From NCBI RefSeq assembly GCF_057098645.1, contig NZ_CM169472.1: a DNA stretch of 64,000 bases; one strand, given 5' to 3'. Numbering within the stretch: position 1 is the first letter of the stretch; every line of letters begins with the position of its first letter. Positions 1-45,396 of the stretch are shown piece by piece. Under the pieces are notes generated by a model that ran no database searches, was not told the origin of the DNA, and was given only the letters and a program-made list of their open reading frames with translations. Made by a program: the position numbers and the translations under genes.

Positions 1-417
1 TTAATCAATAAACAAGGCGGGAGAAATGCCGAATCGCGTTGCCAATTTTTTAGCGTGTTCCAGCGTTAATTTCCTCTTCCCGCTCAAAACGCGTGACACC
101 ATAGATTTACTGCCAATTTCCGGCAGATCGGAAAGGGTTAAACCATATTGATCCATAAGGGTACGAATCACGGCTATACCGCCAGGCATGGCTTGAGCCA
201 TGGCATTAAATTCCGCAAATTCGGGCGCTGATTCTTCCCACGCGGTTATTTTGGCACACACCAGATCCAGTAAGGGGTTTTCAGGATCGTTGAGCAGCAA
301 ATGATCTACCAGTTCCAGCGCCTGGGTGTATTGTTCCTCGTTCTGAATACCCGCCAGAAAAGGTGCCACAGCAGTTAGCTTTTCTCCTGCTTGCAAGATG
401 TCGGCAATCGCAATCAT
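1..417 (-). CDS. higA: HigA antitoxin (XRE-type HTH), intact
   Basis: Complete 138-aa ORF recognised as E. coli HigA; its start overlaps the stop of the higB 3' fragment. Confidence 0.9.
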   Translation of the reverse strand: MIAIADILQAGEKLTAVAPFLAGIQNEEQYTQALELVDHLLLNDPENPLLDLVCAKITAWEESAPEFAEFNAMAQAMPGGIAVIRTLMDQYGLTLSDLPEIGSKSMVSRVLSGKRKLTLEHAKKLATRFGISPALFID

Positions 418-653
418 TTTTTCCCCTTAGTACGATGAACAGCGGTAAAGAAATCGTATTCTTTATGCGTCATAACTTCACGTATGTAGCACTTTTGCGA
501 TTCAAAAAAGACCATTGCTACAACACGTAATTCATTGCCCCCAACATTGAAAACATAATGCTTATCCAGATATTTGAAGTTATCCAGAGATGGGAATACT
601 GCTTTTAATGACTCAGGTTTTTTGAAATATCCCTTAGCAATCGTGTTCCCTAG
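414..653 (-). pseudogene. higB: higB toxin, 3' fragment (about codons 27-104), separated from its 5' end by IS2
   Basis: ORF 414..680 translates to ...LGNTIAKGYFKKPESLKAVFPSLDNFKYLDKHYVFNVGGNELRVVAMVFFESQKCYIREVMTHKEYDFFTAVHRTKGKK, matching the HigB C-terminus; its first 10 codons come from the IS2 end. Confidence 0.85.
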
Positions 654-664
654 TGGATTTGCCC

Positions 665-1570
665 CTATATTTCCAGACATCTGTTATCACTTAACCCATT
701 ACAAGCCCGCTGCCGCAGATATTCCCGTGGCGAGCGATAACCCAGCGCACTATGCGGATGCCATTCGTTATAATGCTCGAACGCCTCTGCAAGGTTCTTT
801 GCTGCCGTTAACCCGTCTGGTTTGGGCATGATACTGATGTAGTCACGCTTTATCGTTTTCACGAAGCTCTCTGCTATTCCGTTACTCTCCGGACTCCGCA
901 CCGCCGTGTTCTTCGGTTCAAGTCCCAACATCCGGGCGAACTGGCGTGTTTCATTAGCCCGGTAGCATGAACCATTATCCGTCAGCCACTCCACTGGAGA
1001 CGACGGAAGATCGTTGCCGAAGCGGCGTTCCACCGCTCCCAGCATGACGTCCTGTACTGTTTCACTGTTGAAGCCGCCGGTAGTCACCGCCCAGTGCAGT
1101 GCCTCACGATCACAGCAGTCCAGCGCGAACGTGACACGCAGTCTCTCTCCGTTATCACAGCAGAACTCGAACCCGTCAGAGCACCATCGCTGATTGCTTT
1201 CTTTCACGGCCACTCTGCCTGTATGTGCCCGTTTCGATGGCGGTACAGCAGGTTTTCGCTCAAGCAACAGCGCATTCTGGCGCATGATCCGGTAAACACG
1301 TTTGGCATTGATCGCAGGCATACCATCAAGTTCTGCCTGTCTGCGAAGCAGCGCCCATACCCGACGATAACCATACGTGGGCAGCTCTCCGATAACATGG
1401 TGTATACGGAGAAGCACATCCGTATCATCAGTGTGACGACTGCGGCGGCCATCCATCCAGTCATCGGTTCGTCTGAGAATGACGTGCAACTGCGCACGCG
1501 ACACCCGGAGACAACGGCTGACTAAGCTTACTCCCCATCCCCGGGCAATAAGGGCGCGTGCGCTATCCAC
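665..1570 (-). CDS. insD: IS2 transposase InsD (OrfB, DDE integrase fold)
   Basis: 301-aa ORF matching IS2 InsD as recalled. Confidence 0.95.
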
Positions 1571-1893
1571 TTTTTTGCCCGTCCATATTCAACGGCTTCT
1601 TTGAGGAGTTCATTTTCCATCGTTTTCTTGCCGAGCAGGCGCTGGAGTTCTTTAATCTGCTTCATGGCGGCAGCAAGTTCAGAGGCAGGAACAACCTGTT
1701 CTCCGGCGGCCACAGCAGTAAGACTTCCTTCCTGGTATTGCTTACGCCAGAGAAATAACTGGCTGGCTGCTACACCATGTTGCCGGGCAACGAGGGAGAC
1801 CGTCATCCCCGGTTCAAAGCTCTGCTGAACAATTGCGATCTTTTCCTGTGTGGTACGCCGTCTGCGTTTCTCCGGCCCTAAGACATCAATCAT
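1528..1893 (-). CDS. insC: IS2 InsC (OrfA, HTH); overlaps insD as expected for -1 frameshift production of an InsCD fusion
   Basis: ORF 1528..1938 contains the 121-aa InsC sequence starting [13 protein letters not shown]; start trimmed to that Met. Confidence 0.9.
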
Positions 1894-1984
1894 CTGTTCT
1901 CCAATGACTAGTCTAAAAACTAGTATTAAGACTATCACTTATTTAAGTGATACTGGTTGTCTGGAGATTCAGGGGGCCAGTCTA

Positions 1985-1989
1985 CCTAG
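1985..1989. repeat. 5-bp target site duplication CCTAG (right copy; left copy at 649..653)
   Basis: Identical pentamer directly abuts both IS2 ends. Confidence 0.9.
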
Positions 1990-2064
1990 AGCCACCAACT
2001 CCGTTTTATGTTGCGGGTATTTTTCCGCAGCATCTTTCAATGCTTTTTGAGTTATCAGGTGCAT
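1985..2064 (-). pseudogene. higB: higB toxin, 5' fragment (codons 1-26)
   Basis: Reverse complement reads ATG CAC CTG ATA ACT CAA AAA GCA TTG AAA GAT GCT GCG GAA AAA TAC CCG CAA CAT AAA ACG GAG TTG GTG GCT CTA GG = MHLITQKALKDAAEKYPQHKTELVAL, the HigB N-terminus. Confidence 0.85.
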
Positions 2065-2130
2065 TCTTCATCACGTCCGTTGACAAATTGGCAATATGAT
2101 AACATCCGTTGACAGATTGGCAACGGATGA
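2065..2130 (-). promoter_or_regulatory. higBA promoter/operator region with two related palindromes (ccgttgacaaattggcaa; ccgttgacagattggcaacgg)
   Basis: Inverted repeats directly upstream of the higB start codon; now separated from higA by IS2. Confidence 0.5.
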
Positions 2131-2246
2131 ATTTATCTGTGTGACGGAAGAATAAACGTAGAAAAACGCTAAACAAGAGAATGTAGAGGATGGTGACAGG
2201 GATTTTTTGTTTTATGGAAGCGCGATTCCAGAACTGGGCAGACATT

Positions 2247-2334
2247 GCCGGATGCGACGCTTGACGCGTCTTATCCGGCCTGGGAGTAACGTGCTGAACG
2301 TAGGCCGGATAAGGCGTTCACGCCGCATCCGGCA
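2247..2334. repeat. REP/BIME palindromic unit pair
   Basis: gccggatgcgacgc..gcgtcttatccggcc and taggccggataaggcg..gccgcatccggca motifs. Confidence 0.7.
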
Positions 2335-2348
2335 GGTTGTTCTCAACC

Positions 2349-3485
2349 TTATCGACGACGCCCGAGCTTCACCGCTTTCAGCACCACAAATTTATTATTC
2401 GTCGCAATAGTGGTGCAGTTGCCGAAAATCTTCTTCAGTTTATGGAAGTAATTCAGGTGACGGTTGGCAACGATATACAGTTCGCCGTTGATTTTCAGGC
2501 AGCGGCGGGCGTGGTGGAACATCTCCCAGGCGACGTTATCGGTCAGCGCATGTTGCTGATGAAACGGCGGGTTGCAGAGCATAGCATTAAAGCGGAAAGG
2601 CTCCACGCCGGAGAGCGCGTTGTTGATCATAAATTCGCAGCGATCCAACGCCTCTGGCATGTTGGTTTCAACGTTCAAACGGCTGGAAGCAACCGCCATC
2701 GGCGATTCATCGACAAACACCACTTTCGCCTGCGGGTTTTTATCAAGCAGCGTCAGACCAATAACGCCATTACCGCAACCGAGATCGACAATCTCCCCTT
2801 CGAGATTCTCTGGCAGATGCTGTATAAAGAAGCGCGCGCCGATATCAAGCCCGGTGCGGGAGAAGACATTCGCATGGTTGTGGATAGTCCAGTCAGTACC
2901 TTCCAGCTTCCAGCTAACGGTCTGCGGCGCATCGGCCAGCGGCGGTTCATTGAAAGTGCAATTAATCAGGCGCGCTTTTTTCCATGCCAGCGTGGTGGTG
3001 GTCGTACCGAGTACTTTTTCGAACAGTTCCAGCGTGGAAGTGTGAATGTCACGGGCTTTGGCACCGGCAATAATACGTGTATCCGACGTGACCACTTTGC
3101 GCAGCGCACGCAGTTGCTGTTCCAGCAATGCCAGTGTTTTCGGCACTTTGATCAGCACAACACCCGGCTGTTGCGGGTAGTCGGCGGTGCTGTCGAGAAA
3201 CTTCACGCTCGACTCATCAATCCCGTTGAGGCGTAAATTCTCGCGCGTCGCCAGTTCACTGATGTATGAGTCGCCAATGCTGTACGGCTTATGTTCCGCC
3301 AGCGCGCAGCTTAACGCACCAAAGGCATCATTCAGGATCAACACCGGGCCGCGGATTTCTGTGTCGTCCAACTGTTGCAGCAAATATTCATCCGCCGCTT
3401 CCCACGCCTGTAGCGGGTTAACGTCATCCGTCGCCGGAAAACGTTGTAGTGTCAGTGAACGGAAACCGTTGTCTAAGTGGCTCAT
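2349..3485 (-). CDS. rlmG: 23S rRNA (guanine1835-N2)-methyltransferase RlmG
   Basis: ORF 2349..3515; start trimmed to [11 protein letters not shown].. (378 aa); tandem methyltransferase domains. Confidence 0.9.
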
Positions 3486-3569
3486 CGGCCCTCCTGAATG
3501 ATAAAATTTCGACATTGCCCCTGAAAAGGGTGCGTGAGTATACCCTTTTTCTCTTTTTCGTGGGCGGTT

Positions 3570-37528: not shown

Positions 37529-37582
37529 ATGAATAAAGCGCACTCAACAGTCTGAAACCCGCCGGAACGGTTTATTACGTAC

Positions 37583-37808
37583 ATCAGGTGAAACTGACCG
37601 ATAAGCCGCTTTCTTTTGGGTCTAGCGTCGTGGACAGTCATTCATCTTTCTGCCCCTCTAAAAGCAAAAACCCGCCGAAGCGGGTTTTTACGTAAATCAG
37701 GTGAAACTGACCGATAAGCCGCTTTCTTTTGGGTATAGTGTCGTGGACAGTCATTCATCTTTCTGCCCCTCCAAAAGCAAAAACCCGCCGAAGCGGGTTT
37801 TTACGTAA
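37583..37808 (-). repeat. Two tandem 113-bp repeats downstream of rnpB, each copying the rnpB 3' end plus a terminator hairpin
   Basis: Units 37583..37695 and 37696..37808 are near-identical and each contain aaaacccgccgaagcgggttttt; the rnpB 3' end (from 37809) is a third, partial copy. Confidence 0.85.
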
Positions 37809-37811
37809 ATC

Positions 37812-38189
<378 letters not shown>

Positions 38190-44471: not shown

Positions 44472-44500
44472 AAAACATGGCCTTAGTGCCATGTTTTTAT
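44472..44500 (+). terminator. Rho-independent terminator after garD
   Basis: aaaacatggc cttagt gccatgtttt followed by tat. Confidence 0.6.
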
Positions 44501-44509
44501 TGTTTAAAG

Positions 44510-44596
44510 CCCCCACGTCCATTAATAATGCATTTGCATTACTTTGCTGAAGCTTATAATTTGAGCAGAAAACAGGCTGTAAAAGTACAGTGCCTA
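44510..44596 (+). promoter_or_regulatory. prlF-yhaV promoter/operator with palindrome aatgcatttgcatt
   Basis: Inverted repeat at 44527..44540 upstream of the prlF start. Confidence 0.4.
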
Positions 44597-44932
44597 ATGC
44601 CCGCTAATGCTCGCTCTCACGCTGTACTGACCACTGAATCAAAGGTCACGATACGCGGACAAACAACTATCCCCGCGCCAGTGCGTGAGGCCTTAAAACT
44701 GAAGCCAGGCCTGGACAACATTCATTACGAAATTCTGCCTGGTGGGCAAGTATTTATGTGCCGACTGGGAGATGAACAGGAGGATCATACTATGAATGCA
44801 TTTTTGCGTTTTCTGGATGCAGATATCCAGAACAACCCGCAAAAAACTCGTCCATTCGACATTCAACAAGGAAAGAAACTTGTCGCTGGCATGGACGTCA
44901 ACATTGATGATGAGATTGGCGACGACGAATAA
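44597..44932 (+). CDS. prlF: PrlF (SohA) antitoxin, AbrB/SpoVT-type
   Basis: ORF 44456..44932 trimmed to MPANARSHAVLTTESKVTIRGQTTIP.. (111 aa). Confidence 0.85.
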   Translation: MPANARSHAVLTTESKVTIRGQTTIPAPVREALKLKPGLDNIHYEILPGGQVFMCRLGDEQEDHTMNAFLRFLDADIQNNPQKTRPFDIQQGKKLVAGMDVNIDDEIGDDE

Positions 44933-45396
44933 TGGATTTTCCACAAAGGGTTAATAGTTGGGCGCTATATGCTCATCCCTGTTTTCAGGAAACCTACGAC
45001 GCTTTAGTTGCCGAAGTCGAGACATTAAAGGGAAAAGATCCTGAAAATTATTAGAGAAATGCCGCCACAAAGTTATTGGCAGCAGTTCACAAAGTGATTG
45101 AGGAGCATATCACGGTCAATCCATCATCGCCGGCATTCCGTCATGGCAAGTCGTTAGGCTCTGGGAAAAATAAAGACTGGTCACGGGTAAAATTTGGTGC
45201 TGGTCGTTATCGTCTCTTCTTTCGTTATAGTGAAAAAGAGAAAGTCATCATTCTGGGATGGATGAACGATGAAAACACTCTTCGCACCTACGGTAAAAAA
45301 ACAGATGCCTATACCGTATTCAGCAAAATGTTAAAAAGAGGACATCCTCCTGCCGACTGGGAAAGCCTCACCCAAGAGACAGAAGAAAACCATTGA
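44932..45396 (+). pseudogene. yhaV: yhaV toxin (ribosome-dependent RNase) with in-frame TAG at codon 41
   Basis: ATG at 44932 overlaps the prlF stop; MDFPQRVNSWALYAHPCFQETYDALVAEVETLKGKDPENY then TAG at 45052..45054; same frame continues as ..AAVHKVIEEHITVNPSSPAFRHGK.. to 45396. Confidence 0.8.

Follow-up and report, generated by a model that had tools for sequence, protein, structure and literature searches.

A derived amber codon in the toxin gene yhaV on a prlF-yhaV haplotype shared by several Escherichia coli lineages

The 64,000-nucleotide stretch of Escherichia coli DNA analyzed here (the window; contig NZ_CM169472.1) contains a toxin gene, yhaV, that is interrupted by an in-frame amber codon and lies next to an intact antitoxin gene, prlF. 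This arrangement raises the question of whether the stop is genuine, whether active toxin can still be made, and what has become of the antitoxin. According to the accounts given in PMC7781912 and PMC12107188, PrlF-YhaV of E. coli K-12 is a type II toxin-antitoxin system (Schmidt et al., 2007). YhaV, a member of the RelE/ParE superfamily, is an endonuclease that cleaves mRNA in a ribosome-dependent manner; with PrlF it forms a complex that binds a palindromic site in the promoter of prlF and acts as a repressor of the operon (PMC7781912; PMC11980606; PMC12107188).

Read directly from the window, yhaV occupies a single plus-strand frame from its ATG to a TGA at 45394-45396 (44932-45396), interrupted at codon 41 by a TAG (45052-45054, plus strand) that is the sole stop in this copy; downstream of it the frame is open to the normal TGA. 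The antitoxin gene lies directly 5′ of the toxin gene, and its TAA (44930-44932) overlaps the yhaV ATG (44932-44934) in the sequence TAATG (44930-44934). The first-pass annotation, made from the letters alone, had described this interrupted frame and had recognized YhaV on both sides of the stop, and both descriptions hold: the read-through translation is identical to K-12 YhaV at 147 of 154 positions (the differences being G9S, Q41*, K43N, V51A, T145S, R148Q, and T153N), with no second stop. The 5′ fragment (44932-45054, plus strand) consists of 40 sense codons plus the TAG and keeps about 29 of the 138 positions of the Pfam model Toxin_YhaV (PF11663). That domain spans residues 12-150 of intact YhaV and is interrupted by the stop, and the window gene lacks an uninterrupted toxin reading frame with the whole domain. 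The untranslated remnant (45055-45396, plus strand) comprises codons 42-154 and the TGA and carries K43N and T145S, the only clearly lineage-specific changes downstream of the TAG in this O145-type copy; K43N occurs in all TAG carriers, and T145S in the O145 and O169 sub-lineages. Upstream of the stop, a G>A at 44956 (plus strand; Gly9Ser), adjoining W10, is private to the window: it had no match in 5,426 complete genomes, and the 40-residue peptide with Ser9 was absent from a collection of ~15 billion proteins.

Searches beyond Pfam contributed little on the protein itself. No NCBIfam model matched YhaV, either intact or as fragments, and a sequence search among PDB chains found no true relative; its sole hit, a match to ThreeFoil (E = 0.002), was judged spurious. 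A single-sequence AlphaFold model of YhaV was set aside (mean pLDDT 47).

Codon 41 is CAG in K-12 (MC4100) and in O157:H7. A scan of species-representative genomes supplied outgroup loci, of which five were aligned (Cedecea was also returned and was left out of the alignment): the codon is CAG in E. albertii, E. coli E69, Escherichia sp. E1V33, and Escherichia sp. MOD1-EC7003, and CAA in Pseudocitrobacter. Because K-12, O157, and all five outgroup loci encode glutamine here, the stop is a derived C>T transition from CAG, as the first-pass annotation had supposed. Codon 41 of yhaV is accordingly a premature stop at an ancestral sense codon, as is characteristic of a nonsense pseudogene.

That annotation had also named a sequencing error at 45052 as one circumstance under which the stop would be illusory; an assembly error would have the same effect. 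The window does carry a few A insertions relative to its closest relative (19338-19339, 20496, and 25947), of a type that assemblers can introduce, and nothing about them is specific to 45052. The change at 45052 is instead a substitution, not a homopolymer indel, and the identical substitution is found on the same linked haplotype in ~175 complete genomes, which many laboratories produced on a variety of platforms. Since some 175-179 independently assembled complete genomes share this base, we regard an error as almost inconceivable. The stop, its polarity, and its distribution are direct observations.

With respect to the insertions themselves, the AA at 19338-19339 splits yqjG (~18792-19780), the gene for a glutathionyl-hydroquinone reductase, into ORFs of 231 and 135 amino acids relative to O145 RM9872; the frameshift may be genuine or may stem from an error in assembly. 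The single A insertions at 20496 and 25947 fall in the yhaH-yhaI and cyuP-tdcG intergenic regions, respectively, and could be assembly noise. In yhaH (~20269/20270), 48 bp present in RM9872 are missing; the site is flanked by 11-bp direct repeats, and the loss is in frame, removing 16 codons of a DUF805 membrane protein.

Distribution of the TAG allele was assessed with a 65-base query in which, across an initial alignment of six sequences, nothing varies but the T at 45052. Exact matches to the TAG-bearing 65-mer occurred in at most 179 of the 5,136 complete E. coli genomes with the locus, a raw frequency of ~3% (3.5%); the natural frequency must be lower, since many carriers are laboratory derivatives of E. 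coli B (BL21, BLR, C41, C43, C2566). Carriers include E. coli B/BL21, E. coli C, O169:H41, and every O145:H28 genome among the matches listed. The window itself is nearly identical to genomes of O145:H28 STEC over 20 kb, and differs from its closest relative, O145 RM9872, by 16 SNPs and a few indels over ~62.7 kb. In all 13 carriers examined (O145:H28, KL53, Z1323HEC0422, the E. coli B strain Rosetta2(DE3), E. coli C, ECCWS199, HKUOPY1, 510016, O18ac:H14 873.10, PapM-32-1, O169:H41 F6326-C1, 88-3493, and O15_8X), codon 41 is TAG and RefSeq annotates yhaV as a pseudogene with an "internal stop." The 40-residue fragment has already been deposited as a protein on at least 1000 contigs (e.g., "Uncharacterized protein yhaV [O145:H28 RM13514]"), as has a 106-residue fragment ("hypothetical protein ECB_02995 [E. 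coli B REL606]"). The yhaV amber allele is lineage-wide and already annotated in databases, and is in that sense ordinary; a search of the available literature library found no paper that describes this natural allele. An apparent occurrence of YhaV elsewhere, on a 210-bp scaffold of Limosilactobacillus vaginalis DSM 5837 (NZ_GG693514.1) that encodes residues 113-143 with 100% identity to E. coli, almost certainly reflects contaminating E. coli DNA in that assembly.

Linkage is complete between the TAG and a series of fixed differences at 44543-45389 (~0.85 kb), a block that takes in the promoter, prlF, and yhaV. A synthetic query in which the haplotype was given CAG at codon 41 (a "revertant") matched none of 5,426 complete genomes exactly and 175 of them with exactly one mismatch; among these genomes the haplotype did not occur in an intact form. 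In the spacer between -35 and -10, the haplotype has a derived C>T at 44543 and a derived 1-bp deletion; its other derived changes are G>T at 44586 and A>C at 44593 and 44594; PrlF S41N; and, in yhaV, Q41*, K43N, and one synonymous change at 45282. At PrlF L39 and D88 and at YhaV Q148 and N153, it is K-12 that has the changed state, because the haplotype matches E. albertii at these positions (and, at PrlF L39 and D88, other Escherichia outgroups as well).

Relationships within the block differ from those beside it. Within it, K-12 and O157 stand apart from a group made up of O145, B, C, and KL53; agaR, a short way downstream, places O145 with O157 and unites B, C, and KL53. O157:H7 is a close relative of O145:H28, and phylogroup A includes K-12, B, and C. 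This disagreement between block and flanks indicates either recombinational spread or an old, sorted polymorphism, and we favor the former: the ~0.85-kb haplotype probably reached O145:H28, B/BL21, C, O169:H41, and other lineages by homologous recombination among unrelated E. coli. Two genomes, O169:H41 F6326-C1 and 88-3493, carry a mosaic yhaV with a 5′ part of the TAG haplotype, a cluster of O157-like variants at the equivalent of 45207-45282, and R92H (CGT>CAC); the pattern suggests recombination within the pseudogene.

If the C>T that turned Gln41 into an amber codon silenced the gene, yhaV would be expected to have evolved without constraint since, and its variation on the TAG background points that way. 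Among 14 TAG carriers, a set of related sequences on which the contrast rests, promoter plus prlF (482 bp) has a single variable site, versus 13 variable sites and six alleles in yhaV (465 bp). The changes in yhaV include W10* (TGG>TGA; 6 of 14), R85W (9 of 14), R92H (2 of 14), and T145S (5 of 14), along with the singletons T21N and G9S, the latter being that of the window. W10* and R85W occur together in Rosetta2/BL21, E. coli C, and four further carriers, and R85W also in the KL53 allele. All of the residues hit by these changes, and by K43N, are invariant in intact YhaV of K-12, O157, E69, and E. albertii, and yhaV on the TAG haplotype in this respect shows the relaxed constraint of a nonsense pseudogene. 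A raw Fisher test (p = 7e-4) overstates the independence of the sites, given that part of the variation, the O169:H41 cluster at 45206-45324, was apparently imported from an O157-like allele; the direction of the contrast is nevertheless clear, with constraint on prlF and none on yhaV. Given that the prlF ORF and promoter region are almost invariant, PrlF has probably persisted as an orphan antitoxin and regulator.

We turn to whether any active toxin could still come from such a gene. Translation would be expected to yield a 40-residue peptide without almost all of the RelE/ParE-type nuclease domain of YhaV, and in all likelihood no toxin is made. Two ways around the stop have to be weighed, the first being a restart downstream of it. 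Initiation at a TTG (45076) or a GTG (45094) would give a C-terminal fragment of 100-106 residues, conceivably with residual activity; ORFs of 106 and 100 amino acids exist and have been deposited as proteins (e.g., "addiction module toxin RelE" and ECB_02995). The predicted anti-Shine-Dalgarno pairing is only -0.4 kcal/mol at the TTG and -1.8 kcal/mol at the GTG, against a median of -2.2 for random 20-mers; the fragment would lack the first ~37-43 of the 138 Pfam model positions; and R85W is present in this ORF in the alleles of B, C, and KL53. A Shine-Dalgarno sequence precedes just one in-frame start, an ATG at 45262, which would give a 44-residue tail. A restart product with activity is, on these grounds, highly improbable. 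Because no restart codon that would yield most of the protein has a Shine-Dalgarno sequence, full-length YhaV would require suppression or read-through of the amber codon, in agreement with the first-pass annotation, which had made the toxin conditional on an amber-suppressor background.

The second way is a leaky amber codon, at which a near-cognate tRNA-Gln or a suppressor would supply a low, physiologically relevant level of active YhaV from the O145-type allele. The frame downstream of the TAG is open in the window, insertion of glutamine would restore the ancestral residue, and the stop is followed by an A, a context expected to be comparatively leaky. Against this, sister alleles carry W10*, R85W, and R92H, which shows that a full-length product is not maintained by selection; a maintained read-through product is likewise argued against by the decay of yhaV next to a conserved prlF. 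Moreover, with the weak Shine-Dalgarno sequence of prlF described below, any active toxin would be poorly neutralized. No suppressor was found where we looked: the 64-kb window contains no tRNA genes, and in the closest relative, O145 RM9872, a check for supE-type alleles returned both tRNA-Gln(CUG) genes, glnV and glnX, as wild type with CUG anticodons. A supE44-type glnV (anticodon CUA) occurs in 155 complete genomes, and among the matches listed all 60 of 60 were K-12 laboratory strains, which have CAG in yhaV. We consider a leaky source of toxin quite unlikely. Programmed stop-codon read-through was rejected as well, the TAG being conserved by descent within one haplotype only, with R85W and R92H downstream of it and W10* upstream in 6 of 14 carriers.

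A search for Rfam families found none overlapping the prlF-yhaV locus; the only family in the window was rnpB (37812-38188, minus strand). Adjoining that gene, 37555-37834 contains a 167-bp self-match at 95% identity with an offset of 113 bp, which indicates tandem repeats of ~113 bp immediately beside the gene for RNase P RNA.

Taken with the haplotype and its decay, these results make it very probable that yhaV is an old, inherited nonsense pseudogene on the ~0.85-kb haplotype, that no toxin is made from it, and that prlF has been retained with altered expression signals. PrlF would then have been kept as a toxin-less antitoxin and regulator, its continued function being probable.

The evidence on the antitoxin side is as follows. 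prlF (44597-44932, plus strand) is an intact ORF of 111 codons whose product matches the NCBIfam PrlF equivalog NF007429 over its full length (168 bits, cut-off 125; AbrB/SpoVT-type family), and the protein (WP_001300560.1) is identical in the window and in all 13 other TAG-haplotype carriers examined. The upstream boundary of the prlF-yhaV unit is marked by a terminator-like hairpin after garD (44472-44497, plus strand), a 10-bp stem followed by a T run. A perfect palindrome, TAATGCA-TT-TGCATTA (44526-44541), overlaps the predicted -35; its sequence does not differ between the two E. coli haplotypes and is the same even in Pseudocitrobacter. From the description of a palindrome in the prlF promoter (PMC7781912), we take it as the candidate PrlF/YhaV operator. 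Gene and palindrome are thus as intact as the first-pass annotation had stated. With its own frame intact and conserved and its cognate toxin gene disrupted, prlF is here an orphan antitoxin gene.

The signals that drive prlF have changed on the same haplotype. A sigma-70 promoter is predicted at 44533-44560 (plus strand), based on consensus match only, with TTTGCA and TATAAT separated by a 16-nt spacer, compared with 17 nt in K-12, O157, and all outgroups (the 1-bp deletion); two further spacer substitutions, at 44547 and 44549, may be either ancestral or derived. In the 5′ leader (44577-44596, plus strand), the G>T at 44586 converts the Shine-Dalgarno sequence AAGGA of K-12, O157, and E. albertii into AAGTA. 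Predicted anti-Shine-Dalgarno pairing drops from -5.3 to -0.4 kcal/mol, weaker than the -2.2 kcal/mol median of random 20-mers from the window; the same G>T also creates a perfect palindrome, CTGTA-AAAG-TACAG. These differences, like the additional yhaV lesions and the conservation of PrlF, are plainly visible in the aligned genomes, and they suggest that prlF expression is lower on the TAG haplotype.

Loss of the Shine-Dalgarno sequence fits poorly with a strongly selected PrlF function, and it opens another reading, in which the whole module is on its way out and prlF, itself silent or nearly so, is conserved only through lack of time. The loss of pairing (-0.4 vs. -5.3 kcal/mol) and the shortened spacer (16 vs. 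17 nt) speak for it, as does the count of clearly derived changes, with five in the 54 bp that precede prlF (the 1-bp deletion and four substitutions) vs. one in its 336 bp. Equal lack of constraint on the two genes is not what would be expected given the 1 variable site in the 482 bp of promoter and prlF vs. 13 in the 465 bp of yhaV, with PrlF identical among 14 carriers from distant lineages. On balance we think decay of the entire module unlikely. A different possibility, which we put forward tentatively and with about the same low expectation, is that the haplotype is a co-adapted allele in which the toxin is off, prlF output has been reduced by selection, PrlF acts as a stand-alone regulator, and spread was helped by a benefit of toxin loss during slow growth with limiting nutrients, as in evolving chemostat populations. 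Given that loss of YhaV removes the co-repressor, the spacer deletion and the G>T in the Shine-Dalgarno sequence could be a compensatory down-tuning of prlF, and PrlF could have been kept, for instance, for the Lon-linked proteostasis phenotype described for prlF mutants. Conservation of prlF could be taken to favor such down-tuning, and loss of its Shine-Dalgarno sequence to favor decay of the module.

The window holds a second case of a toxin gene switched off with its antitoxin kept. An IS2-type element of 1331 bp (654-1984, within a region of 414-2064) interrupts the higB toxin gene ~25 codons in; its ends read TGGATTTGCCCC... and ...GGGGGCCAGTCTA, it is flanked by a 5-bp CCTAG target duplication, and it encodes transposase ORFs of 136 and 301 amino acids. 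The antitoxin gene higA (1-417, minus strand) is intact. None of the 5,426 complete E. coli genomes contains the higB::IS2 junction.

The TAG allele of yhaV offers a clean natural example of the loss of a chromosomal type II toxin with the antitoxin gene kept. Functional YhaV is, on this reading, missing from O145:H28 STEC, from E. coli C, and from widely used B strains such as BL21, which is relevant to work on persistence, stress responses, and amber suppression in these strains. In O145-type alleles, yhaV could be re-opened by engineering an amber suppressor into the host; in E. coli B or C, suppression of the amber codon alone would not be enough because the opal stop W10* is also present. 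The linked changes in the prlF signals provide a testable hypothesis on how autoregulated toxin-antitoxin operons readjust after toxin loss. The stop itself was already known, and what is modestly new is its linkage to a changed prlF promoter and leader, the difference in conservation between prlF and yhaV, and the discordance between block and flanks.

Compared with PrlF-YhaV of K-12, the window locus has the same position between garD and agaR, the same TAATG overlap, and the same palindrome at the -35; PrlF differs at 3 of 111 residues, and the yhaV frame is the 147/154 match given above. Unlike K-12, it has a toxin ORF interrupted at codon 41, a promoter spacer 1 nt shorter, and a prlF Shine-Dalgarno sequence that has been lost, and it would for this reason no longer work as a toxin-antitoxin pair. 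The nearest counterparts are the yhaV pseudogenes of E. coli B (REL606, BL21(DE3)), E. coli C, and O145:H28, which share the TAG, the haplotype, and PrlF with the window. The O145:H28 genomes differ from it by one base in yhaV (the private Gly9Ser at 44956), whereas E. coli B and C have the second stop, W10*, and R85W, both of which the window lacks. Loss of yhaV function has also been obtained in the laboratory: it was repeatedly selected in nitrogen- and magnesium-limited chemostats, and yhaV knock-outs are viable and can be favored when growth is slow and nutrients are limiting (PMC5960147). The chemostat alleles comprised IS insertions and small deletions, including a truncation to 38 residues, and alone carried a cost of ~8%; a W10G change arose there as well (PMC5960147). 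The laboratory-evolved alleles and that of the window have in common an early truncation of YhaV (38 vs. 40 residues) with prlF left in place. Whereas the former appeared within a few hundred generations in K-12 (PMC5960147), the window allele is a natural point mutation that has persisted, gained further changes, and reached several lineages.
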